A DNA stretch of 64,000 bases from an uncultured Nitrososphaerota archaeon (GTDB lineage Archaea; Thermoproteota; Nitrososphaeria; Nitrososphaerales; CADDZS01), in assembly GCA_963799845.1 (NCBI GenBank), contig CAWCYI010000006.1, positions 992,001 to 1,056,000 on the forward strand, read 5' to 3'. The translations under genes were made by a program, and so were the position numbers. Every line of letters begins with the position of its first letter. The stretch's first letter is position 1. Shown here piece after piece: positions 38,699 through 60,324 of the stretch. The notes beneath the pieces are model-generated. The model was not told the DNA's origin. It searched no databases and saw nothing but the letters and a program-made list of their open reading frames with translations.

Positions 38699-40447
38699 TT
38701 ATATCAAGACACCTACACTTGTCCTCTTCAGGCAAATTCGGGAAATGACAGCGCTCTTGACGATTTGTATGCCTAAATGCTCCATTAGCTTAGGCTGGGA
38801 CTGTTGTCTTTCGAGCTTCCCCACTAGGATCTTACCTGGGCGTGCTTTGTAGTCGGGAATCCCAACTCCAATTGCGATCATAGCGCTTTTTGCAGAGGCA
38901 TGTGGAGAAAAGAATTCTGTAATCGCGTCGTCGTAAAACGTCGAGCCCGAAGCTCCTAAGTTGAGCGAGTATGAAGATAAGTAGACATTACCAGCGATCA
39001 CTCCTGCTTCAAGCTGTGCAACTCTGTAGCCTCGATTTCCCATTGCTCGAAAGAGAAATGACAAGTCGGCCATTGTAAAGAGGACGGCACTTGCATCGCC
39101 AAACAGAGGTTGCTCTAAGCACAAGTAACTAGACATATTTCGAAAGTTCCCAAGCTTCAGTAGCTCGAGAGATTGATTAGCATGATTGTGAAAGTAAGAT
39201 CCTGAAGAAAGCCCGTCTACAGCGTTGGCAATCATGTATATGTCATTAAACTGGGTCATGGAATTACCAGAAAGCGGAACTCCTCTAGTTGAAGAATGCA
39301 AAATCCACGATAGCTTTGCAAATGGAATTGGTCTCCTTGCAAATCTGCGGGTGGAACCTCTGCGAAGTATCGTCTCTGATAAAGGGAGGCCTTTCAATCT
39401 AGTCTCTTCCTGCAATTGAAGGGCGACTATCTTGTCATGAGGATTACTTTTTGGTTCTCTGTTTTGTAAAGAAACTTCAGCTAGTTTCTCGTTCCAAGAC
39501 GTAACTTGCTTTTTCTCAAAAAGGGAGGAAGCTTCGTTCATTTCCCAAATCAATGGATAACTGTGCTCTTCGCTTGAAAGCGGAACCGTCTCAAGCACCA
39601 GAGGAACTGATGTTTCGTTTCTTGACAGATTGTCAGGAGGAGAGAAAGATTCTGGTCCAGCCCCAACGGGTACGAGAGCAATCACCGCTTCTTTTCTATC
39701 CTCTAGTCCGAGAAGCTTCTCAATCTCACGATCCACAAATCCCGTAACGACGCACGCTCTGAGCTTTTCGGAACTACAGATCGCGAGGAGGTTGGCGGCT
39801 ATTACACCTGAATCCCAGAACCAGTGACGATACGACCGAGCCTCATATTTCCAGGCATTCCTCCATGCATGTGAAGTAAAAATGACAGTAAGGGGAGACG
39901 AAATGATATCCGCATTGTTGCCTGCAATTGAAGAAAGCTCACCTCTGTTATCTCCACTGCGTAGTTGTGTGAGAGCGAAATCCGCGGGAGCAAAATGATA
40001 CACCCCGGCCTTCAACCCAAGCAAGTCCTTGCAAATTAGATACAACTCTATCGGATAGAGCGCACCCGTCGCCGAGGCAGCTCGCATGTAGTAAACTTCC
40101 CCGCCGATGTGCATCTTCCGCGTGAGGCCTGCGCAAAAGAAAAGGAGCTCGGCAACTTTCTTGAGATCAATACTCTCTCCAGAAGCGCCATTTAACGCAG
40201 AAGCAAGAGCATCCAGCGAGTTAGTCTTAGGTTGAGGAAACTCATGCGGAAGAGGAATTGAAGATAAATTGCTCTGATAGATCTTGAAGGGGATCGGTTT
40301 GTTTGCAAAGTCCAATCTGTGGCTGTTAATTCTTATGCTAAACTCTGAGTGCTTCGTCGCCTCATGGTATTGCGAGGCGATTTCAATCTCATTGTTGTCG
40401 GACAGGTGACCTGACAATGTAAGACCAACACAACCTTTGACTCTCAC
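38699..40447 (-). CDS. SagB/ThcOx-type double nitroreductase-domain dehydrogenase
   Basis: YHEATKH, RAASATGALYPIELY, WKYEARSYR, second domain RRGSTRRF..RGYRVAQLEAG..FYDD. Confidence 0.88.
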   Translation of the reverse strand: MRVKGCVGLTLSGHLSDNNEIEIASQYHEATKHSEFSIRINSHRLDFANKPIPFKIYQSNLSSIPLPHEFPQPKTNSLDALASALNGASGESIDLKKVAELLFFCAGLTRKMHIGGEVYYMRAASATGALYPIELYLICKDLLGLKAGVYHFAPADFALTQLRSGDNRGELSSIAGNNADIISSPLTVIFTSHAWRNAWKYEARSYRHWFWDSGVIAANLLAICSSEKLRACVVTGFVDREIEKLLGLEDRKEAVIALVPVGAGPESFSPPDNLSRNETSVPLVLETVPLSSEEHSYPLIWEMNEASSLFEKKQVTSWNEKLAEVSLQNREPKSNPHDKIVALQLQEETRLKGLPLSETILRRGSTRRFARRPIPFAKLSWILHSSTRGVPLSGNSMTQFNDIYMIANAVDGLSSGSYFHNHANQSLELLKLGNFRNMSSYLCLEQPLFGDASAVLFTMADLSFLFRAMGNRGYRVAQLEAGVIAGNVYLSSYSLNLGASGSTFYDDAITEFFSPHASAKSAMIAIGVGIPDYKARPGKILVGKLERQQSQPKLMEHLGIQIVKSAVISRICLKRTSVGVLI

Positions 40448-43798: not shown

Positions 43799-44227
43799 TT
43801 GCAATCTTCAGTTATCGTCCTTGATTCATCCGCAATTGCATCGATTTTCTTCAAAGACAAGTCTGAACAGCGTGTTGCCCAAGTTATCAAAGGATATGAC
43901 AAATTCTCAACTGTAGACGTGGCCTATGCTGGGGTTGGAAGTGTTGCTTGGAAAAGTGTGGTACTATTCAAGGAAAAGATTGAACTAAGTCATTTAGCTC
44001 CCAAGCAAGCACTAGATTTCATTCAGGATAACTGTGAGGTGGTGTCAAGCAGGGAACTCTTGAACCAAGCATTTGAACTGGGAACAAAATGCAACTTACA
44101 GATCTACGATTCCTTGTTCCTCGTTCTAGCGAAGCAATTGAGAACCAATGTTCTTACGACCGATGAGAAGTTGTGCAATAAAATAAACTCGATCAAGGAA
44201 CTGCGCGGAATTACGGTTTTACCTTGA
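43799..44227 (+). CDS. VapC PIN toxin (second acidic residue appears to be Gly)
   Basis: IVLDSSA, IYDSLF, LTTDEKL. Confidence 0.85.
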   Translation: MQSSVIVLDSSAIASIFFKDKSEQRVAQVIKGYDKFSTVDVAYAGVGSVAWKSVVLFKEKIELSHLAPKQALDFIQDNCEVVSSRELLNQAFELGTKCNLQIYDSLFLVLAKQLRTNVLTTDEKLCNKINSIKELRGITVLP

Positions 44228-44682
44228 AAGAGTTGACTAGATAGAAAGCAAGGGGGCAAATTCGGTTTCTCAGTAGATGTGATGATTTTTTGGATTTTAA
44301 ACTAGACCGTTTGTCCTTTCGTGACTTGCTGCCGAACTAGTCCGTGCGGCGGTGAAATATTGGCTAGCCAGAATCAGCGTAATAACTGTGAAGATTAAGA
44401 GCGAGCAATTTTCAAACTGGGATGGCTGCGGGAATTTTCTGGTTAAGCTTTCCAAATTTCCATATCGAAAATCGGGATTTAAGTGGTTCGTGCGTGAGCA
44501 CACTCAAAAATTGATGATCTAGAAATATACGAGCTCCAACTGCTAAGAACGCGGAAATTACAAACGTGTCCCCACGCCAAGACTTGGACAGGGGGTAGCA
44601 CTATACAAGTTAGATCGACTACACTTGGCCCAGAAAAAATCACAAAATCATGAAATAGCCAAGTCTCATTAAATTCACAAAA

Positions 44683-45717
44683 ATGGAACCATACATCGCA
44701 GTCTGCGTCCAGAGTCGGATCGCAGACGCAAGGAACAAAGCTGACGTCATCGTCAACGCGAAGCACATCTCAGAATGGATCGACGCTGCAAATTATGTCA
44801 ACTCGATGGAAGGCACCGTCAAGATTGTCGCATTCCCAGAAGGAGCTCTCCAGGGTTTTCCAGATGAAGGTCTGGGAGCAATGAATCCTGACGATTACTA
44901 CGAGAAAGTAGCGATTGATGTTCCTGGAGAGATCACCGACCTGGTCGGAGAAGCGGCGAAGAAGAACAACACGTTTGTCCTGGTTCAAGCGAGAGTAAAG
45001 CTTCCTGAATTCACGGGAGATTATTTCAACGCCGCCCTTATGATCTCTCCAGCTGGAAGGGTAATCTATTCTACCTACAAACACGCTGTTTACGTTTCGG
45101 AACCCTCGACGACTCCGCATGATGTCTATGAAAAATGGGTGAGCACCTTTGGAGAAGATTCATTCTTTCCGGTTGCGAAGACCGAAGAAATTGGAAATTA
45201 TGGAGGAGTAATCTGCTTTGAGAGAGACTTTCCCGAAAGCGCGAGGGGATATGCTCTAAACGGAGCGGAGGTGCTCTACATGCCGAGCGGCCTTGAGCCT
45301 AGAGTAGCTCGCGGAATCTGGGATCTCCAGAGCAGGAGTCGAGCCTTGGATAACACGTGCTTTGTTTTGGCTCCAAACTGCGGCCCCTTTTACTCTGACG
45401 TCCAAAAGAAGAGCTGGAAGCCTGGATTTATTTGCGGAGGAAGATCAATGATAGTCGGCTATCTTGGTGAGGTTCTCGCTCAGGCGGTCGATTCGCAGGA
45501 GGCGTTTGTCGCCGCTCCGATCAATATCGATGCTCTAAGATATCACAGGAAGACCTCAACCAGGTTTAACCCGCTGATAAACCTCAAAACCGAGATCTAT
45601 TCTGGAATATACAAAAAGTCAATTTATCCACCCAACACCCGACCCAGGTCACGCTCAGAAAGAGAGCAAGCTCTTAGGCTTTCAAAGGAAAGACTTGAGA
45701 AAATGAAAGTCATTTAG
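44683..45717 (+). CDS. Nitrilase-superfamily carbon-nitrogen hydrolase
   Basis: E-K-C triad: FPEG, YKH, ICFE..FPESAR. Confidence 0.9.
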   Translation: MEPYIAVCVQSRIADARNKADVIVNAKHISEWIDAANYVNSMEGTVKIVAFPEGALQGFPDEGLGAMNPDDYYEKVAIDVPGEITDLVGEAAKKNNTFVLVQARVKLPEFTGDYFNAALMISPAGRVIYSTYKHAVYVSEPSTTPHDVYEKWVSTFGEDSFFPVAKTEEIGNYGGVICFERDFPESARGYALNGAEVLYMPSGLEPRVARGIWDLQSRSRALDNTCFVLAPNCGPFYSDVQKKSWKPGFICGGRSMIVGYLGEVLAQAVDSQEAFVAAPINIDALRYHRKTSTRFNPLINLKTEIYSGIYKKSIYPPNTRPRSRSEREQALRLSKERLEKMKVI

Positions 45718-45760
45718 GACAGCCGCGAGTTTCTGTCTAAGAATCGACAATCCGGTCAGC

Positions 45761-46132
45761 TCAGATCCACTTTACGTGGGGGAGACCCCTGAAGTGCTCA
45801 TCGCTAGTACATAGCTGTATTTCGAAACGACGGGCCGTTGCATAGATCAATGCGTCTGAGAAATGAAGCCCGTACTCCAAGCTATAATCAGCCGCTTCCA
45901 GCGAAAGTGTGTCGTCAACGGGCACTACGTGAGTCTGCGTAAGTGCTGCGACATTTTCCAATGCGATTTGCTCGCCTTTTATCTTCTTTACCTTCCTGTA
46001 CACATCGTACAGCACGACTACCGATGTAACTATCTCGGCCGGTCGAGTTTGGTCTATTATCTCATTATACTTATTGGCCTTTGGGCCGTTTGTAAATCGC
46101 TCGATCCAGCCGTAACTATCGATAGCAATCAT
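45761..46132 (-). CDS. VapC PIN toxin
   Basis: IDSYGWIE, LHFSDALIYATA, TSDEHF. Confidence 0.9.
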   Translation of the reverse strand: MIAIDSYGWIERFTNGPKANKYNEIIDQTRPAEIVTSVVVLYDVYRKVKKIKGEQIALENVAALTQTHVVPVDDTLSLEAADYSLEYGLHFSDALIYATARRFEIQLCTSDEHFRGLPHVKWI

Positions 46133-46338
46133 TCAGGATCAGTTTCATCACGGAGCTCTTTTGTATCCAATCCAGGAGTCATGCCCTTGGTTTCTTTGAG
46201 AGACCGCACTGGAATGTAGTGAAGGATTTTGTGTTTTGAAATCGCGATCATTTTGTCCCCGGGCTTGATTCCGGCCTCTTTGCGCAGCTTCTCTGGAATT
46301 ACTACTTGATACTTTTTTGATACCTTCACTGTCTCCAT
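46129..46338 (-). CDS. AbrB/MazE-type antitoxin
   Basis: VKVSKKYQVVIPEKLRKEAGIKPGD; ATGA overlap with the toxin. Confidence 0.92.
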   Translation of the reverse strand: METVKVSKKYQVVIPEKLRKEAGIKPGDKMIAISKHKILHYIPVRSLKETKGMTPGLDTKELRDETDPE

Positions 46339-46352
46339 GGTTCGCCCTATCG

Positions 46353-46402
46353 TAATACGTTGGATGTATCGATTAATACGTTGGATGTATCGATTAATAC
46401 GT
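46353..46402. repeat. 21-bp tandem duplication in the TA promoter
   Basis: TAATACGTTGGATGTATCGAT twice plus TAATACGT. Confidence 0.9.
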
Positions 46403-46679
46403 ATTGCGATCGTTGCTCTCTTCGATAGCCGATTTCCGAAAGAGTCTTGGTGACTTCAGAAGTGATCGACATTCTTACGAGCTACCGATAACAGGAATTC
46501 AATAGATTCCCCATGTATGATACTGCCTCACCAGCAGAAAAGTCCTCGAAACCAATGGAAAATTTCCGCTCTCGGCGTCTTGCGACCCACGTTGGATGAA
46601 TGTACTTAAACAAACGATGCAAATATCACGAAAATCAATCCATAAATATCCTCACACACATATATACACAGACTAGCTT

Positions 46680-46892
46680 TTGGGAACGAGGAATATCTCA
46701 ATATCCGACGAGGCTTATTCTAGACTCGCCGCACAAAAGAAAGAAAACGAGAGCTTCACTGATGTAGTTAACCGATTGACTGGCAAGCGATCGATCCTGG
46801 AGCTTGCGGGAATCCTCACAAAAGCTGAGGGCAAGGAGATTGCTTCCCGTATCGAAAAAGTGAGAAGGGAAAGCCGACGGAGAATTTCTTGA
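46680..46892 (+). CDS. VapB antitoxin (DUF217-like)
   Basis: TRNISISDEAYSRL..KKENESFTDVVNRL. Confidence 0.9.
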   Translation: MGTRNISISDEAYSRLAAQKKENESFTDVVNRLTGKRSILELAGILTKAEGKEIASRIEKVRRESRRRIS

Positions 46893-47302
46893 CGGGGATT
46901 GTGAATTTTACGCTAGCAGATACTACATTTCTAATAGATCTCATGGTAAATGATCCGAATGCTCTGGAAAAGGCGACCCAGCTTGAACAAGCTGGCATAT
47001 CTATTTCCGTGGGGACGCCAACGGTCTTTGAACTGTATGTCGGCGTATCGTTGAGCAAAAAGGCCCAGAAAGAAAAATCAAAAATAATTTCGACACTTTC
47101 TGCGATGGCACAGGTCCCACTCGATCGCGAGTCAGCAATTGCCGCCGGTTCTATCTATGGAGACAAAAAGAGGATCGGCGCCACGATCGATCCCGAAGAT
47201 GCAATGCTGGCGGGCATTTCAAAGGCAAGGGGCGAGCCGGTCATTACTCGAAACCTTAAGCATTTTTCCAACATCGACGGAGTCAAGGTCGAAACTTACT
47301 GA
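46889..47302 (+). CDS. VapC PIN toxin
   Basis: ADTTFLIDL, VFEL, EDAMLAG, TRNLKHF. Confidence 0.9.
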   Translation: MTGIVNFTLADTTFLIDLMVNDPNALEKATQLEQAGISISVGTPTVFELYVGVSLSKKAQKEKSKIISTLSAMAQVPLDRESAIAAGSIYGDKKRIGATIDPEDAMLAGISKARGEPVITRNLKHFSNIDGVKVETY

Positions 47303-47654: not shown

Positions 47655-48081
47655 TTGTCCGCAGATGATTCACGAATCGCTCTATTCGAAGCGATACCGC
47701 TCTTCAGGGGTCTGAGTAAAGATGAATTGAAGGAAGTTTCGGACGGCTCTAAGGAAATGAGCTTTCAAACTGGAAACGCGATAGTCAAAGAGGGAGATTC
47801 GGGCCTGGGATTCTACATCATGGTAGACGGAGAGGCCGTTGTGAAGCGCAAGGGCAAGACGCTGTCCAAATTGAAAAGGGGAAGTTTCTTCGGCGAAATG
47901 GCGCTCATCGATGATCAGCCGAGATCGGCCGATGTTGTCGCGACGGAGCCAACAAAGTGCTTCGTTTTGATGAGATGGAATTTTTGGTCAATTGTCTCGA
48001 AGAAGCCCATGATAGACTCGCGGACTGCTTCAAGAGATGGCGCGACGCGTGCGAGCAACGAACAAAGCATTGACTGACTAG
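47655..48081 (+). CDS. Stand-alone cyclic-nucleotide-binding domain protein (1-nt indel near 48016)
   Basis: IPLFRGL, IVKEGD, GSFFGEMALIDDQPRSADV phosphate-binding cassette; corrected tail ARGLLQEMARRVR. Confidence 0.9.
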
Positions 48082-48159
48082 CGCCGGAAGCTCCGAATTA
48101 CAAAGAGATAGCTCTGAAAAAAGTTAAGACACCCAGAGCTTCGTTCCTGATCGCAGCAG

Positions 48160-50838
48160 ATGTCCGTTCGTTCGGTTGACTTGAGTTCATTTTATGAGCT
48201 TCTATACAATCCCGGCTATGCACCCGAGCGATCGCCAAAAGGGCATATTGAGAACCTGACCGTGGACGGGAAACCCGCCTTCATTTTGATGAATGAGGGA
48301 ACCGGGCAGTACTTCGAAGTGGATGAGACAACCAACGCCATCTGGAACCTGATGAATGGCAAGAACACACTAAACCAGATCTACGAAGAAGCAGTAAAAT
48401 TGGACGATTCCCTCACCGAAAAGGAAGTCAAGGATATCGTTGTTTCTTTTGCTGAAGAAGGTCTGGTAGAGTCAACCGAGCCTGAAGTCGAAGAAAAAAG
48501 GGTCAGAATAGTATCGGCGTTTCAGCTCGACATCAGTCTCTTGAAAGACTGCTCGAAGACACTTTCCGGATTTTTCAAAGTGACTCGCAAGTTGATCAAA
48601 AAACCGGAACTCTGGATCGCCATCGGAATCGTTATCGTGGGCTCCGTGCTTTTTGTTGGGAGCTTTTTACAGATTTTCTCAAACCCGAGCGATTTCGCTG
48701 TCCTCGGTTCGATCCTGCTCGGCTTGTTTTTTTATGATTCGATAATACTTTTGCCTGTATATCTGATTCACGAGCTTGCGCATGCTGTGGCGTGCGATTA
48801 TTACGGCGGAAAGCCTCGCGAAATTGGAACTGGTCTGTACTATCTCACTCCATTCTTTTACTGCGACACCTCCGACTCCTGGAGACTGGGAAGAAGGGCT
48901 AGGATAATGATATCCATCGCTGGACCTCTATCGACGTTGGTTATAGGATCGCTTTTCGTCTTTGCCACATATTTCCTCCCTCCCGGGTTTAGCAGAAACG
49001 TGCTTCAGATTTCGGCCTTTTTCTGTTTCTACGGGACCCTCATCAACTTCTCACCCTTTATCGAAACAGATGGCTACTACATAATTTCAGACATTTTGAA
49101 TATTCCTAACTTAAGAGACGAATCTTTCAGATATCTGAAAACAAAATTGTTAGGCCTTCTTGGTAGACCCGTAACTCAAGCGAGGTACAGCAAAGCTAAG
49201 AAGCGGATTTTTCTGATTTTTGCCCTCATCAGCTTCGGTTGGCTCTTATTCTTCGGCTATACCACGATCCGCTTGACATATCTCTATGGTCAAGACGCCT
49301 ACCGTGCGTTGTTAAATCTGCTCGAGACTTTGTTTAGACTACACCCCTTCAGCCTGACCGCGGTCGTTGTAAGTGCGGCAGCGGTGACTTACTTTGCACT
49401 CCTAGTGTCTGGATATTTCGTGATGGGAGTCGTAGGTTACAAGAAATTGCAAATGGGAAAGGTGAAGCTAGAGACAATCCATGACAAAAGGGTAGCGATT
49501 TTCCTTCCACTTCCGGCCTTTCTTCAACGTGATCAGGTTGCGGAACTTCTCAGCAACGCCAAGAAGATATCTCGCAAGTTCTCTCGCTCTTTTTCAGTCA
49601 TATGGGAGCCGCCGCTTAGCGTTGTCAGCATGAAACTTGGTAAAGTGGATCAAAGCCTGGACGATCTACGAAAGGATATGCTCACCGTAGAGCAATCATT
49701 CAAATCAGCACACAATAGTTTTCTTTCAAAAAAATTGAACAACTTCTTGACGGAAGGAGCTGATAGCAAGAAAATAGTTCGCGAGTATCTTAACGAGCTG
49801 GCAGATCAATTTCCCCCCTTTGAGCGGAGTGTCACTGTCCGGCAAGTTCCAAGGTTTCTCAAAGAGCAAAATGCACAGATTAGTTATCTTGTCCGGTCGG
49901 CGTTTGGGACTGTCTGGACACTGGAGCTGCCACCAAAAGATTACTCCAGATTAAGGCGCGATCTGTTCCCAAGCTTAATTGCCGAAGACCTTGCAGTGAT
50001 CGAGTCTGAAAGTGGACTCGAACACTTCAAAATTCATACCGTTTTCGGCTTGGATGCGTTAGCCAAGCTCTCTTTTGAAATCGAGAAAGATGTGAGTCAG
50101 GTTTACAGGCGGCCCGAGGTCTATCAAGCTACAGCCTTTATCGAACCGATCAGGAGCAGCCTAGTCTTCGTCGGAAGAACTGAAGGAGTGGAAGGCTCGA
50201 CAGTTTGGCTGGGCGGCCTGTTTCTGTATCAGGCCTGGGTCGGATATATCAGCGAGATTTTGTATGAATCCACGCTCGGATTAAGGTCAATCAGGCAAGC
50301 CCAATCTCACTCGTTCACGAAATCCCAAATGGCGAAACTCCTGGATCTGGAGATTGAAAAGCTGAGAAAAGACATGGATCAACTAAAGGGTCTGAAGAGA
50401 GCAGTCGACGCGTCCGTTGACAGGATAAGGAGCACTTTTCAGAGCGCAAGAAATTTTCACGATTCTCTCGTTTCCCTGCTCACCCAACAGAACTTCGACG
50501 TTGGATTGTACAGGCCCATTCTTACGACAAATGAAGACCGCCTGGCTAACGTCAAAGAGAAGATCCAGATGTTTCAAGATGAGTTCAACGGGGTGCTCGA
50601 CCTACTAGGCAAGATTACCGAAACGATTGACGAACTGTATGTGAAAAGGCAAGCTAATCTGCAAGATTCTACCGCGAAGAAAACTGGATATAGTGATTCT
50701 ATTTTCTCAAAGCTTCATATCGGCAACAAACCAGAGTCGTACCAACATACACCACCGTACGATTCCGCTGTCAAAGTATTATTCGCCACAGCTCGCTTGA
50801 CGTACAATGTCGTCCTTGTCAGTGATATTGTAATATGA
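48160..50838 (+). CDS. PqqD/RRE - M50 (site-2) intramembrane metalloprotease - unknown coiled-coil domain fusion
   Basis: N-terminal PqqD pattern (QYFEVDETTNAIWNLMNGKNTLNQI..FAEEGLV); HELAH; YCDTSDSW; AGP; NFSPFIETDGYY; ~450-aa soluble tail. Confidence 0.85.
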   Translation: MSVRSVDLSSFYELLYNPGYAPERSPKGHIENLTVDGKPAFILMNEGTGQYFEVDETTNAIWNLMNGKNTLNQIYEEAVKLDDSLTEKEVKDIVVSFAEEGLVESTEPEVEEKRVRIVSAFQLDISLLKDCSKTLSGFFKVTRKLIKKPELWIAIGIVIVGSVLFVGSFLQIFSNPSDFAVLGSILLGLFFYDSIILLPVYLIHELAHAVACDYYGGKPREIGTGLYYLTPFFYCDTSDSWRLGRRARIMISIAGPLSTLVIGSLFVFATYFLPPGFSRNVLQISAFFCFYGTLINFSPFIETDGYYIISDILNIPNLRDESFRYLKTKLLGLLGRPVTQARYSKAKKRIFLIFALISFGWLLFFGYTTIRLTYLYGQDAYRALLNLLETLFRLHPFSLTAVVVSAAAVTYFALLVSGYFVMGVVGYKKLQMGKVKLETIHDKRVAIFLPLPAFLQRDQVAELLSNAKKISRKFSRSFSVIWEPPLSVVSMKLGKVDQSLDDLRKDMLTVEQSFKSAHNSFLSKKLNNFLTEGADSKKIVREYLNELADQFPPFERSVTVRQVPRFLKEQNAQISYLVRSAFGTVWTLELPPKDYSRLRRDLFPSLIAEDLAVIESESGLEHFKIHTVFGLDALAKLSFEIEKDVSQVYRRPEVYQATAFIEPIRSSLVFVGRTEGVEGSTVWLGGLFLYQAWVGYISEILYESTLGLRSIRQAQSHSFTKSQMAKLLDLEIEKLRKDMDQLKGLKRAVDASVDRIRSTFQSARNFHDSLVSLLTQQNFDVGLYRPILTTNEDRLANVKEKIQMFQDEFNGVLDLLGKITETIDELYVKRQANLQDSTAKKTGYSDSIFSKLHIGNKPESYQHTPPYDSAVKVLFATARLTYNVVLVSDIVI

Positions 50839-50955
50839 CAAGCGGGCGGGCTCAGCACTTTATTTCGGGATATCTTCCTGTGAGAATGGGGCGTTCTTGA
50901 AAGTAACCAATCTTTGGGGAAGGGTAAAAACTTCGATACGGAGTTTTAACTTTCT

Positions 50956-51150
50956 TCAATGAACCAGACTTTCCTTGAGACAAGCCAAGATGAGTAAGAT
51001 TTTTGCGCAGGTTACAAGAAACGCGAAAAAGAAAAAGAAACGGAGAGACGTACGTCGTCCCTCCGTGATACGCCGAGCGATTGCTAACGTAGGCCTTTTA
51101 CGGACTTGTTCTGTCTTTTCTTTCAGCTTCTTGATTCTTTTTTCAGCCAT
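50956..51150 (-). CDS. 64-aa peptide with Lys/Arg-rich N-half and Phe-rich hydrophobic C-half (candidate protease substrate or precursor)
   Basis: ATG start, TATA-like ATATATTT ~40 nt upstream, divergent from TrmB and convergent with the M50 gene. Confidence 0.5.
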   Translation of the reverse strand: MAEKRIKKLKEKTEQVRKRPTLAIARRITEGRRTSLRFFFFFAFLVTCAKILLILACLKESLVH

Positions 51151-51344
51151 TTCTTAATTCAGCGAGCTTACAAGATACACCCGTGAAATATATCTGCTCC
51201 TACCACTGGCGAAACTGAGCAGTAGTAAAAATTTGGCTCTGCCAATCTGGCCAGAATTAGAATGCATATATTCGATGCGTTATTTCACAAACGAGTAGCC
51301 GGACATTCTTTATCCATTGGCGCTAGGAGATTGATCTACAGCTG

Positions 51345-52637
51345 TTGTCCTCATTCGCATCGGCGGAAGATCTGGTACCTCTCTTTCATCAACTAGGGCT
51401 TAATCTCTACGAATCCAAGGCGTACGCCACCCTACTTGCAAAAGGGCATGTCTCTCCGAGGGAGCTTGGCGGGTTGACATCCATCCCCCAAAGCAGAACT
51501 TACGACACTCTCTTGAGCCTGAAGGGGAAGGGTTTTGCCCTAACCACTCCTTCATCGTCGATGGCGGTCTACACAGCCGCTGATCCTTCGAAGCTCCTCT
51601 CAAGCCTATACTCAAAGAAAAGGAAAGAGATCCAGGAACAAATGATAAAGCTCCACGAGGAAACGGAACGTAAGCTCGAGACTCTCTACGATGTCTATTC
51701 ACAGGCATTGGAGAAGGTCGCTTCACTTTCTGAACAACGGCCAGCCCAGATTGCAACCGAGCCCGTCTTTGTAATCGAGGGCAACGACAACATCGAGAAT
51801 GCCATGCTGACAATGATAGGCAAGGCGGAGAAGGAGTTTCTTCGAATCACAAGGCCTCCATCGATCGGGAAGTGGATGTTTGACCCTTTTTACTTCACGA
51901 AAGGACGAACATCTGGCCGTCTGAACGAAGCGCGAGAGCGGGGAGTAGCAATTCGAACGCTCAGTTTACCGAGCGAGATTCCCTCGCTGCTAGGATTACA
52001 TATCGAAGTCGAAGAATTCAAGGAAAGGAGGTATCTTGACAAGGCCGACGACATTTACGAAAAATTTATTCTCGTGGACGAACGGATTGCACTTCTCAAT
52101 CTCAGAGATCCTGTATCGAAGACTTTCGGCTCTATTGCGCTCATGATTGAATCAAAGCCGACATGCTCGATTCTTAAGCAACACTTCGAGGTAATGTGGA
52201 AAAAGGGGAACAACGTTTCAAACATAGTGAAAAGAATGAATGAAGCAACAATAGAAGCGTGTCTCGCGATGAGGGAGACAGATTTTCCCAAACTAGAATG
52301 CGCGATATACAAAATCCTTGCAAATGAAGGCGCGATGGATGAAGACTCCCTTGCAACTCGGCTCGCGGTAAGGGGTCGAACCTTGACGGAAGTTCATCAA
52401 GTCTATCAAAAAACTCGACAAGCGAGGTTTCCTACTTGGAAGCGATTCGCCAAAGCTTGTAATGGCAGAGAACCCTCTGAAGCTCCTTTCGGATCTTGGT
52501 CGCAAGAGGACTCGAAGCACAGCGAGTTCAAAGAAGGTGAGAGGTTAGACAGAAAAGTCGATTCTACTGATAGATGCTCTGAAAAGATAACTCGAGTTAA
52601 TTCAGCTAAGAATTATTCTTTGAAAGCTCAGCAGTAA
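51345..52637 (+). CDS. TrmB-family transcriptional regulator with extra C-terminal wHTH (frameshift near 52395)
   Basis: LGLNLYESKAY..IPQSRTYDTLLSLKGKGF; effector domain KFILVD; second HTH ECAIYKILANEG. Confidence 0.85.
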   Translation: MSSFASAEDLVPLFHQLGLNLYESKAYATLLAKGHVSPRELGGLTSIPQSRTYDTLLSLKGKGFALTTPSSSMAVYTAADPSKLLSSLYSKKRKEIQEQMIKLHEETERKLETLYDVYSQALEKVASLSEQRPAQIATEPVFVIEGNDNIENAMLTMIGKAEKEFLRITRPPSIGKWMFDPFYFTKGRTSGRLNEARERGVAIRTLSLPSEIPSLLGLHIEVEEFKERRYLDKADDIYEKFILVDERIALLNLRDPVSKTFGSIALMIESKPTCSILKQHFEVMWKKGNNVSNIVKRMNEATIEACLAMRETDFPKLECAIYKILANEGAMDEDSLATRLAVRGRTLTEVHQVYQKTRQARFPTWKRFAKACNGREPSEAPFGSWSQEDSKHSEFKEGERLDRKVDSTDRCSEKITRVNSAKNYSLKAQQ

Positions 52638-59200: not shown

Positions 59201-60324
59201 ACCTGGCCGACATAAGTTCATAGACACCTGTTGGTCAGAAGGAATTTCTTCATGTCAAGATGCGAGCAAAACCTTCGCGTTCGATAGTATTCTGCCAGGA
59301 TTGATTTCAGTTCTTTCAATGACGTCGGAAAGGTTGGAAGCCTTGAGAGATCCTTCTCACCCTCGCGCCAACACTCCTCCATCATGTTGAACTCTGGCGA
59401 AGCTGTCGGGATCCATCTGACTCTGAGAGTCTTCCTGTTCTTACCCAAATAATCAGTTACGATCCTGGTTTTGTGGTGTTGCCTTGCTTTGTCAAGGAAG
59501 AGATAGAGTGATCCAAACTTCCTGTGCACCTTCTTCAGGTAGTCGAGGAATGTCTCGCCATTGAATTTCTCGTACTGCCTGAAGATTTGTGTCCCGTCCA
59601 GGCTGATCGCTCCAAACACCACGGTGTTGCCGTGCGAGCCTGACACAATCCGAATCGGTCGAATCCCTTTGACCGCCCACACCCTTTTGGTTTCTATGTT
59701 CTGGACGAAGATTGATTCGTCTTCGGATGCTACGGTGAAGCCTTCCGGGATATTCCTGAGGAGTCTTGCGGTCCTTTTTTAAATTCGAGCCTCTCTTCGA
59801 GGGAAGCCTTGTGAAGTAACCTCTTGTCAGGGACAATTGCTCTCACTCCCCACTTCTGCATCAACCTGTAGATGTGTCTCTCAGTGTATGCCACGTCTGC
59901 TTCCTTGCGGATCATCTCCCTGACCTCCTTCACGGTCCAGCCGCATTCGTTCTTCACGACCTTCCTCTTCACCGCAATGAACTTGTTGTGATCGAGCTTC
60001 GGAGGTCTCCCGCTCCTTTCCATCGTCTTGAGTCCTTCTAGCCCATCTTTCTCGAAACGTCTAAGCCACGGTGTCGTCCATGATTTGTGCCGGTGAACTT
60101 CCCTTGCTACGTGCGACGCCGGGACACCCTCGTACTTGACCTTCAGAACGAGGAATATCCTCTTGCTTACGTTTGCGTCCCTCTCCTCTCTATAAGCCTC
60201 TTCAACAATCTCCTTCGGTGCCTGTAATCGAGACATACAACCTGAGATAGGAAGGGAAGTTGGCCAAAAATGAGAATGTCTAGGTCTGTGGCCCTTTCAG
60301 TCTAATAATTTATGTCGGCCAGGT
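59201..60324 (-). mobile_element. Intact IS630-family insertion sequence (1124 bp)
   Basis: Perfect 15-bp IRs ACCTGGCCGACATAA / TTATGTCGGCCAGGT with TA duplication in a CTAG target. Confidence 0.93.
59218..60236 (-). CDS. IS630 transposase (HTH ORF plus DDE ORF joined by a -1 frameshift)
   Basis: RSGRPPKL HTH region; TTTAAAAAAG shift site near 59775; D(EDES), D(FLDKA), E(SPEFNMMEECW). Confidence 0.9.

Follow-up and report, generated by a model that had tools for sequence, protein, structure and literature searches.

An RRE–site-2 protease fusion travels with a cyclic-nucleotide-binding protein and a TrmB-family regulator in Nitrososphaerales

We analysed a 64,000-nt stretch of DNA (the window) from an uncultured soil Nitrososphaerota archaeon, whose 4.6-Mb genome is in nine contigs; the window lies in contig C6. 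Three genes are the subject here: one for a stand-alone cyclic nucleotide monophosphate (cNMP)-binding protein, one directly downstream for an 892-aa protein that is predicted to fuse a recognition element (RRE) for peptides that are made on the ribosome and modified after translation (RiPPs) to a site-2 protease (S2P), and one for a TrmB-family regulator. Homologues are named Nitrososphaerales or Thaumarchaeota in database annotation. A sequence-only reading of the window had already placed the cNMP-binding open reading frame (ORF) and the 892-aa protein at these coordinates, and both pass Pfam cut-offs (the protease through its PqqD domain). It had also called the TrmB gene divergent; the gene is present but lies downstream of the protease on the same strand, and is divergent only relative to a 64-aa ORF. 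The observations of that reading are thus largely real and partly confirmed, and its interpretation is partly supported.

The cNMP, protease and TrmB genes travel together in Nitrososphaerales. We compared 21 genome loci, 80 metagenome loci and those from related genomes; after near-identical copies were merged, 22 unique loci carried a protease at least 45% identical to that of the window, and 20 of these had at least 600 nt of upstream DNA. Among the 20, the cNMP gene is directly upstream of the protease and co-directional with it in 18, and a TrmB homologue is present in 17, divergent and upstream in 16 and co-directional in one, with intergenic gaps that are usually 23-89 nt; L032, L061 and L047, a short locus, depart from this pattern. 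The trio is kept across relatives of 46-60% identity despite otherwise differing flanks, and in the window, where TrmB has been relocated downstream, cNMP gene and protease are still adjacent. For 26 of the protease clusters P0001-P0068, the longest contig was judged by eye to be equal in size to that of a cNMP orthologue cluster. No clear shared operator emerged when the TrmB-cNMP spacers were searched by k-mers. The proposed linkage of cNMP gene and TrmB gene to the protease therefore holds, whereas that of the short ORF does not, as no homologue of it was found in the other protease loci compared. One of the exceptions, L061, has a protease 58% identical to that of the window (L061:6001-8692) that is split into two overlapping ORFs, with a cyclase gene upstream and neither a cNMP nor a TrmB gene.

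From its sequence and model the protease is predicted to consist of a cytoplasmic peptide-recognition (RRE) domain and a six-helix S2P core with intact zinc and catalytic motifs, followed by a large C-terminal domain. Residues 42-102 match PqqD (PF05402) with 29.3 bits against a cut-off of 23.4, and in the full-length AlphaFold model (predicted local distance difference test, pLDDT, 82.5) the region forms a winged helix with a three-stranded sheet (strands 28-35, 38-45 and 50-54, then three helices), for which Foldseek returned TbiB1-leader complexes, lasso B1 and PqqD (prob 1.0, TMt 0.61-0.66). The N-terminus is therefore PqqD-like, as had been read from the letters. The M50 site is likewise intact: HELAH occupies residues 204-208 and N296, P299, D304 and G305 are all present, both motifs falling within hydrophobic segments; H204, E205, H208, P299, D304 and G305 are invariant in a 48-sequence alignment and N296 is conserved in at least 90%. 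Hydropathy gives about six transmembrane (TM) helices between about residues 148 and 433, and the distribution of Lys and Arg (positive-inside counts) puts both termini in the cytoplasm. The top Foldseek match of the full model is the Methanocaldococcus jannaschii enzyme MjS2P (3b4r; E 5.9e-3, prob 1.0, TMt 0.43), and the next is SpoIVFB (8vjl), both with modest E-values. Together, the matches to S2Ps and to leader-bound RRE proteins indicate a fusion of RRE and site-2 protease in the N-terminal two thirds of the protein.

Family models place the core in the M50 clan at some distance from named families. The Pfam model Peptidase_M50 (PF02163) reached 20.0 bits, under its gathering score of 27.2, whereas the daptide biosynthesis intramembrane metalloprotease model NF041824 matched residues 40-367 with E 5.6e-53 (180.4 bits, below its equivalog cut-off of 300); NF058609 (YydH/LiaK; E 2.7e-11) and DUF3267 (E 7.5e-4) also matched below their cut-offs. 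We base membership of the clan on the motifs, the NF041824 match and the fold. A Pfam scan found no CBS or PDZ domain in the protease, and for its homologue P0022 a protein atlas gave structural matches under TM 0.5 throughout and no feature match. The protease is single-copy in the genome and holds the only PqqD domain there.

The C-terminal part of the protein had been described as an unassignable coiled-coil tail of about 450 aa. It is indeed unassignable, with no family or PDB match, but a plain coiled coil does not fit the model: folded alone with 53 sequences, residues 437-892 (456 aa) gave an AlphaFold2 (AF2) model with pLDDT 87.1 and a predicted TM-score (pTM) of 0.86, in which a compact alpha/beta and helical domain is built from beta-alpha-beta-beta units with long helices. 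A sequence-profile search of the PDB with this domain returned coiled-coil noise only, Foldseek against the PDB gave weak ferredoxin-like pieces and nothing at E ≤1e-3, and the best VIA structural alignment had Z 8.6, to helical bundles, which is under the meaningful level for helical models. The domain is thus confidently modelled and, as modelled, without a known fold. An HMMER scan over 1.84 billion representatives retrieved 45 proteins; in all listed proteins longer than 850 aa, except P0117 (1696 aa), the domain spans from about residue 400-475 to the end, and most of the shorter proteins are stretches of it. Because it occurs only in the RRE-S2P architecture in this exhaustive scan, we consider the domain specific to the protease family. 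In deeper members of the family (L016, L018, L051, L010 and bathyarchaeial ones) the last, conserved helix of the domain is preceded by an additional hydrophobic hairpin, which the clade of the window lacks.

The small protein upstream is a member of the cNMP-binding family (PF00027, E 1.1e-17, 64.2 bits; cut-off 27.5) and has an intact phosphate-binding cassette, FGEMAL...PRSA; G80, E81, R90, S91 and A92 are invariant in 34 sequences. The assembled ORF of 140 aa ends aberrantly: its final 27 aa are out of frame relative to 33 of 33 aligned relatives, one of them 87% identical, and the +1 frame from 48019 reads the conserved C-helix exactly as in that relative. An apparent extra base at 48016 accounts for the place where the ORF stops; in a related run, X2, a short-read contig has one letter fewer at that position and a loose end in X3 concurs, so the frameshift is probably an assembly error or a strain variant. 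The regulator carries a TrmB winged helix-turn-helix (PF01978, 56 bits against 25.6) and reached no equivalog cut-off (TrmB, TrmBL1 or TrmBL2). It too has an apparent one-base frameshift: by alignment with 12 locus-linked relatives and reading of the frames, the conserved C-terminus is picked up in the +1 frame near 52395, which gives a true protein of about 400 aa rather than 430. A major facilitator superfamily (MFS) gene elsewhere in the genome (L115:2451-3933) is likewise split into two overlapping ORFs. The frameshifted cNMP and TrmB genes and the split MFS gene suggest indel errors in the assembly.

A link between this kind of protease and cyclic nucleotides recurs in another phylum. P0082, an Anaerolineae protein of 1122 aa, aligns to residues 20-372 of the window protease (RRE and core) with 27% identity and has two C-terminal cNMP-binding domains (E 4e-49); PF00027 is present in 118 of the 120 relatives of P0082 among the matches listed (483 at E ≤1e-5). 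Judged from these sequences, the Chloroflexota P0082 family is a large, independent fusion of an RRE-M50 core with cNMP binding. Class III cyclase genes flank six of the 22 unique relatives and two deeper thaumarchaeal loci. The genome itself has 24 class III nucleotidyl-cyclase domain matches and only two PF00027 proteins, one being the product of the cNMP gene at this locus and the other encoded at C4:345000-345452, next to an MFS transporter.

The 64-aa ORF between protease and TrmB gene had been proposed as a peptide substrate. The ORF exists, and it has a basic N-terminus and a hydrophobic C-terminus. Its length is within chance, as 904 of 3000 shuffles (30%) of the 506-nt spacer contained a longest ORF of at least 64 codons. 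Its codon-usage score of -0.055 is below that of 99.7% of 881 true coding segments and typical of non-coding ORFs, while the controls (cNMP gene, TrmB gene, protease end and VapB) all score as coding. In the 21 Thaumarchaeota-clade loci with DNA beyond the protease, Nitrososphaerales included, no conserved small ORF follows it. A leader profile built from 29 bathyarchaeial leaders (see below) did not return the ORF among 760 matches up to E 1000. The ORF is probably spurious and not a gene, and we reject it as the substrate on grounds of chance length, non-coding codon usage, lack of conservation and lack of a leader-profile match.

A different arrangement surrounds the bathyarchaeial relatives of the protease, which are flanked by a divergent regulator with two winged helix-turn-helix domains and, downstream, by an AbrB/MazE-like gene. 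Of the 38 unique loci that have 450 nt or more of downstream DNA, 29 contain a convergent ORF, 45-230 nt past the protease stop, for a protein of 52-191 aa, in which a conserved N-terminal leader is followed by hypervariable tandem basic repeats whose units vary by locus (ARAP, AKAP, SPAR, TRAS, TMKP, QTRA, ATRAA and others). The leader approximates to M-E-E-K...K-P-x-E-K-x-K-I-Y-P-K-L, strictly present in 16 of the 29. Variability of the leader at codon positions 1, 2 and 3 is 14.9, 13.1 and 26.9; as it is highest at the third position, this strand and frame are coding. The leader-repeat protein is probably the substrate of the bathyarchaeial protease, and since a conserved recognition segment here adjoins an RRE-protease, these genes support for the family the general peptide idea of the sequence-only reading. 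A degenerate pattern of the leader motif had eight matches in the genome of the window and four in controls. A 98-aa protein with three TM segments (TM98) and a 147-aa protein recur near deeper-branching members of the family.

Further features of the window are listed in Table 1. The upstream flank holds three PIN/VapC-type modules and a CN-hydrolase gene; the three PIN-domain genes are clustered, and two of them have antitoxin partners. The downstream flank has a cupin fragment, genes for a membrane protein, a tandem universal stress protein and a family 2 glycosyltransferase, and an insertion sequence (IS) element, whose IS630-like transposase is broken into a helix-turn-helix (HTH) part and a DDE_3 part. 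An Rfam search of the window gave no match. The earlier statement that no tailoring enzyme or exporter is adjacent stands in that no exporter lies within about 10 kb of the protease and no tailoring enzyme recurs at other loci, with the addition of one gene 7.2 kb upstream for a SagB-family peptide dehydrogenase of 581 aa with two such domains (TIGR03605, 167 bits; cut-off 78). We rejected this gene as part of the system, as it has no homologue at any other protease locus fetched and the genome has no YcaO.

Table 1. Coordinates of the features discussed (window positions, or positions in the locus named)
Feature	Position	Strand	Basis or remark
Stand-alone cNMP-binding protein, ~141 aa	47655..48081	+	PF00027; assembled ORF stops at 48077, conserved frame at 48081
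RRE-S2P protease, 892 aa, with family-specific C-terminal domain	48160..50838	+	
PqqD/RRE domain, residues ~20-105	48217..48474	+	PF05402, Foldseek
S2P/M50-like membrane core, residues ~148-433, ~6 predicted TM helices	48601..49458	+	hydropathy, motifs, NF041824, Foldseek
HELAH codons	48769-48783	+	
NxxPxxxxDG codons	49045-49074	+	
Predicted cytoplasmic C-terminal domain, residues 437-892	49468..50835	+	no assignable family or fold
64-aa ORF, the substrate suggested earlier	50956..51150	-	probably not a gene
TrmB-family regulator	51345..52548	+	PF01978; assembled ORF to 52637, conserved C-terminus stops near 52548
SagB-family peptide dehydrogenase	38699-40447	-	TIGR03605
Cluster of three PIN-domain (VapC-like) genes	43799-47302		
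MazE/AbrB-like antitoxin	46129-46338		partner of a VapC-like gene
VapB antitoxin	46680-46892		partner of a VapC-like gene
IS630-like transposase, broken	59218-60236	-	HTH part and DDE_3 part
Leader-repeat gene, bathyarchaeial example	L078:8838-9164	-	others at L094, L110, L091 (loci within L019-L111)

On balance we think it somewhat probable that the cNMP-binding protein, the RRE-S2P protease and TrmB constitute one conserved module for cyclic-nucleotide-linked regulated intramembrane proteolysis. What points to gating of the protease by the cNMP protein is synteny and the Chloroflexota fusion. In such a module the small protein would bind cAMP or cGMP made by the many class III cyclases of the organism and might dock on the cytoplasmic face of the protease, at the C-terminal domain or the RRE, permitting or blocking substrate entry. 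The RRE would capture a short recognition segment of the substrate and feed it to the active site, and TrmB would control transcription of the operon. In the Nitrososphaerales lineage the substrate would not be encoded beside the protease.

Several observations weigh against this. Two of the relatives, L032 and L061, lack the cNMP gene; a deeper thaumarchaeal clade (~38% identity) keeps TrmB and has no cNMP gene, and both are absent from the bathyarchaeial clade and from one Asgard locus, so that the cNMP gene is best seen as a lineage-specific addition. Synteny is equally compatible with the protease and with TrmB as the partner of the cNMP protein. The protease is found in only three of 60 related genomes and the module is accessory; if the frameshifts are real and not assembly errors, it may be decaying in this strain. 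None of the 24 cyclase-domain matches of the genome lies in the window. A genome-wide scan found no leader-repeat ORF in the genome of the window and no substrate gene lies beside the protease here, nor do the bathyarchaeial accessory genes (TM98 and the 147-aa protein) have a convincing homologue in this genome.

Other explanations divide the three genes differently. The cNMP protein and TrmB could be a split CRP-like regulator, with sensor and HTH on two polypeptides, that gives cAMP-dependent transcription; the protease would then be controlled only as one of its targets, without gating of the protein itself. TrmB is linked about as often as the cNMP gene (17 of 20), usually sharing the divergent promoter region of the cNMP-protease operon, and JGI annotation labels the cNMP orthologues CRP/FNR-like. 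We nevertheless regard this as unlikely: in the Chloroflexota fusions it is the protease, and not an HTH, that carries the cNMP domains, the TrmB gene in the window is displaced while cNMP gene and protease stay adjacent, and deeper clades retain TrmB in the absence of the cNMP gene.

A second alternative, which we hold to be less likely still, is that the protease acts as daptide MpaP, YydH/LiaK or TmcP do and serves as leader peptidase for a peptide like a bacteriocin or RiPP, with a precursor encoded by the 64-aa ORF or at some other place and a cNMP protein that only tunes production. That the best family match is to the daptide protease and the next to YydH/LiaK, that the RRE fold is present, that bathyarchaeial relatives have an adjacent leader-bearing peptide gene and that the 64-aa ORF is basic and then hydrophobic would all agree with this, but the 180 bits stay under the equivalog cut-off of 300, neither length against chance nor codon usage, conservation or leader profile speaks for the 64-aa ORF, and the protease has no exporter nearby, no tailoring enzyme recurs at other loci and the genome lacks YcaO. 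Least probable of all, in our judgement, is that no mechanistic coupling exists and that a general or stress-related S2P has neighbours held by shared regulation or by co-transfer on a mobile island. The patchy distribution (three of 60 relatives) and the position of the locus amid three VapBC modules and near an IS element are what such a history might leave; conservation of the trio at 46-60% identity with otherwise different flanks, and a domain fusion in another phylum, argue for coupling instead.

If cyclic-nucleotide-linked proteolysis is the correct reading, a wider picture can be drawn, which we offer tentatively and hold more doubtful than the module itself. In soil Nitrososphaerales an RRE-guided S2P would be gated by a dedicated stand-alone cAMP/cGMP receptor and would be a main output of a receptor-poor network (24 cyclase domains, two receptors); the 456-aa domain would be a new receptor-docking fold; and in Bathyarchaeia the protease would process hypervariable, leader-tagged basic repeat proteins that resemble histone tails. 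Such a picture would amount to a previously unrecognised archaeal peptide-processing and signalling system. To our knowledge, archaeal cyclic-nucleotide effectors are hardly known, and little is settled about what archaeal site-2 proteases cleave or how they are regulated. A conserved pairing of cNMP receptor and RRE-protease, fused in another phylum, provides a testable route from second messenger to proteolysis, and the bathyarchaeial leader-repeat genes are natural candidate substrates for working out the chemistry of the family.

The conserved cNMP-protease-TrmB module appears to be an undescribed variant of RRE-dependent S2P peptidases. A full-text literature search returned RRE-S2P fusions of daptide systems and S2P-clan leader peptidases such as TmcP, and nothing on archaeal RRE-S2P members, the C-terminal domain, the cNMP pairing or the Chloroflexota fusions, although supplements, which lie beyond such a search, might list such fusions; the view that the arrangement is not described in archaea, taken earlier from the letters, is in keeping with this. 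It differs from HlyD-fused M50 and other exporter-coupled systems in that the protease has no HlyD match and no exporter is found within about 10 kb. An M50-HlyD fusion is seen in P0083, so exporter-type fusions occur elsewhere. Regulatory S2Ps with cytoplasmic sensor domains include SpoIVFB, with its CBS domain, and the M. jannaschii S2P, with which the window protease shares a fold match (8vjl, 3b4r) and the concept of an S2P equipped with a module that senses nucleotides; here, by contrast with SpoIVFB, the candidate sensor is a separate cNMP-binding protein, the attached domain has no known fold, and neither CBS nor PDZ is present.

Among leader peptidases the closest is MpaP of daptide biosynthesis, described as an intramembrane site-2 protease with an RRE joined to its N-terminus (bioRxiv 10.1101/2023.03.08.531785), an order of domains that the window protease appears to share and that agrees with its best hidden Markov model match, NF041824. 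The window protease differs from MpaP in its extra 456-aa C-terminal domain, its archaeal origin and its cNMP and TrmB partners, and the locus differs from daptide systems in having no precursor and no oxidoreductase, aminotransferase and methyltransferase set within about 10 kb, with a score below the NF041824 equivalog cut-off. YydH/LiaK, a metalloprotease of epipeptide maturation, and TmcP, as far as described, have in common with the window protease an S2P-clan core with HExxH and a distal Asp/Pro. TmcP is the DUF3267 S2P-clan leader peptidase of TMcin and has four TM helices only (PMC13252029); against this enzyme, in whose description an RRE goes unmentioned in the part consulted, the window protease has about six predicted TM helices, an RRE and the C-terminal domain. 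The nearest parallel to the pairing itself is the P0082 family, proteins of about 1,110 aa annotated as 'cyclic nucleotide-binding domain-containing protein' or 'putative peptide zinc metalloprotease'. These are bacterial, their cNMP domains are fused and follow extra TM segments, and the archaeal C-terminal domain is absent, but they share with the window protease an RRE-like domain, an M50 core and an apparent coupling to cNMP-binding domains.

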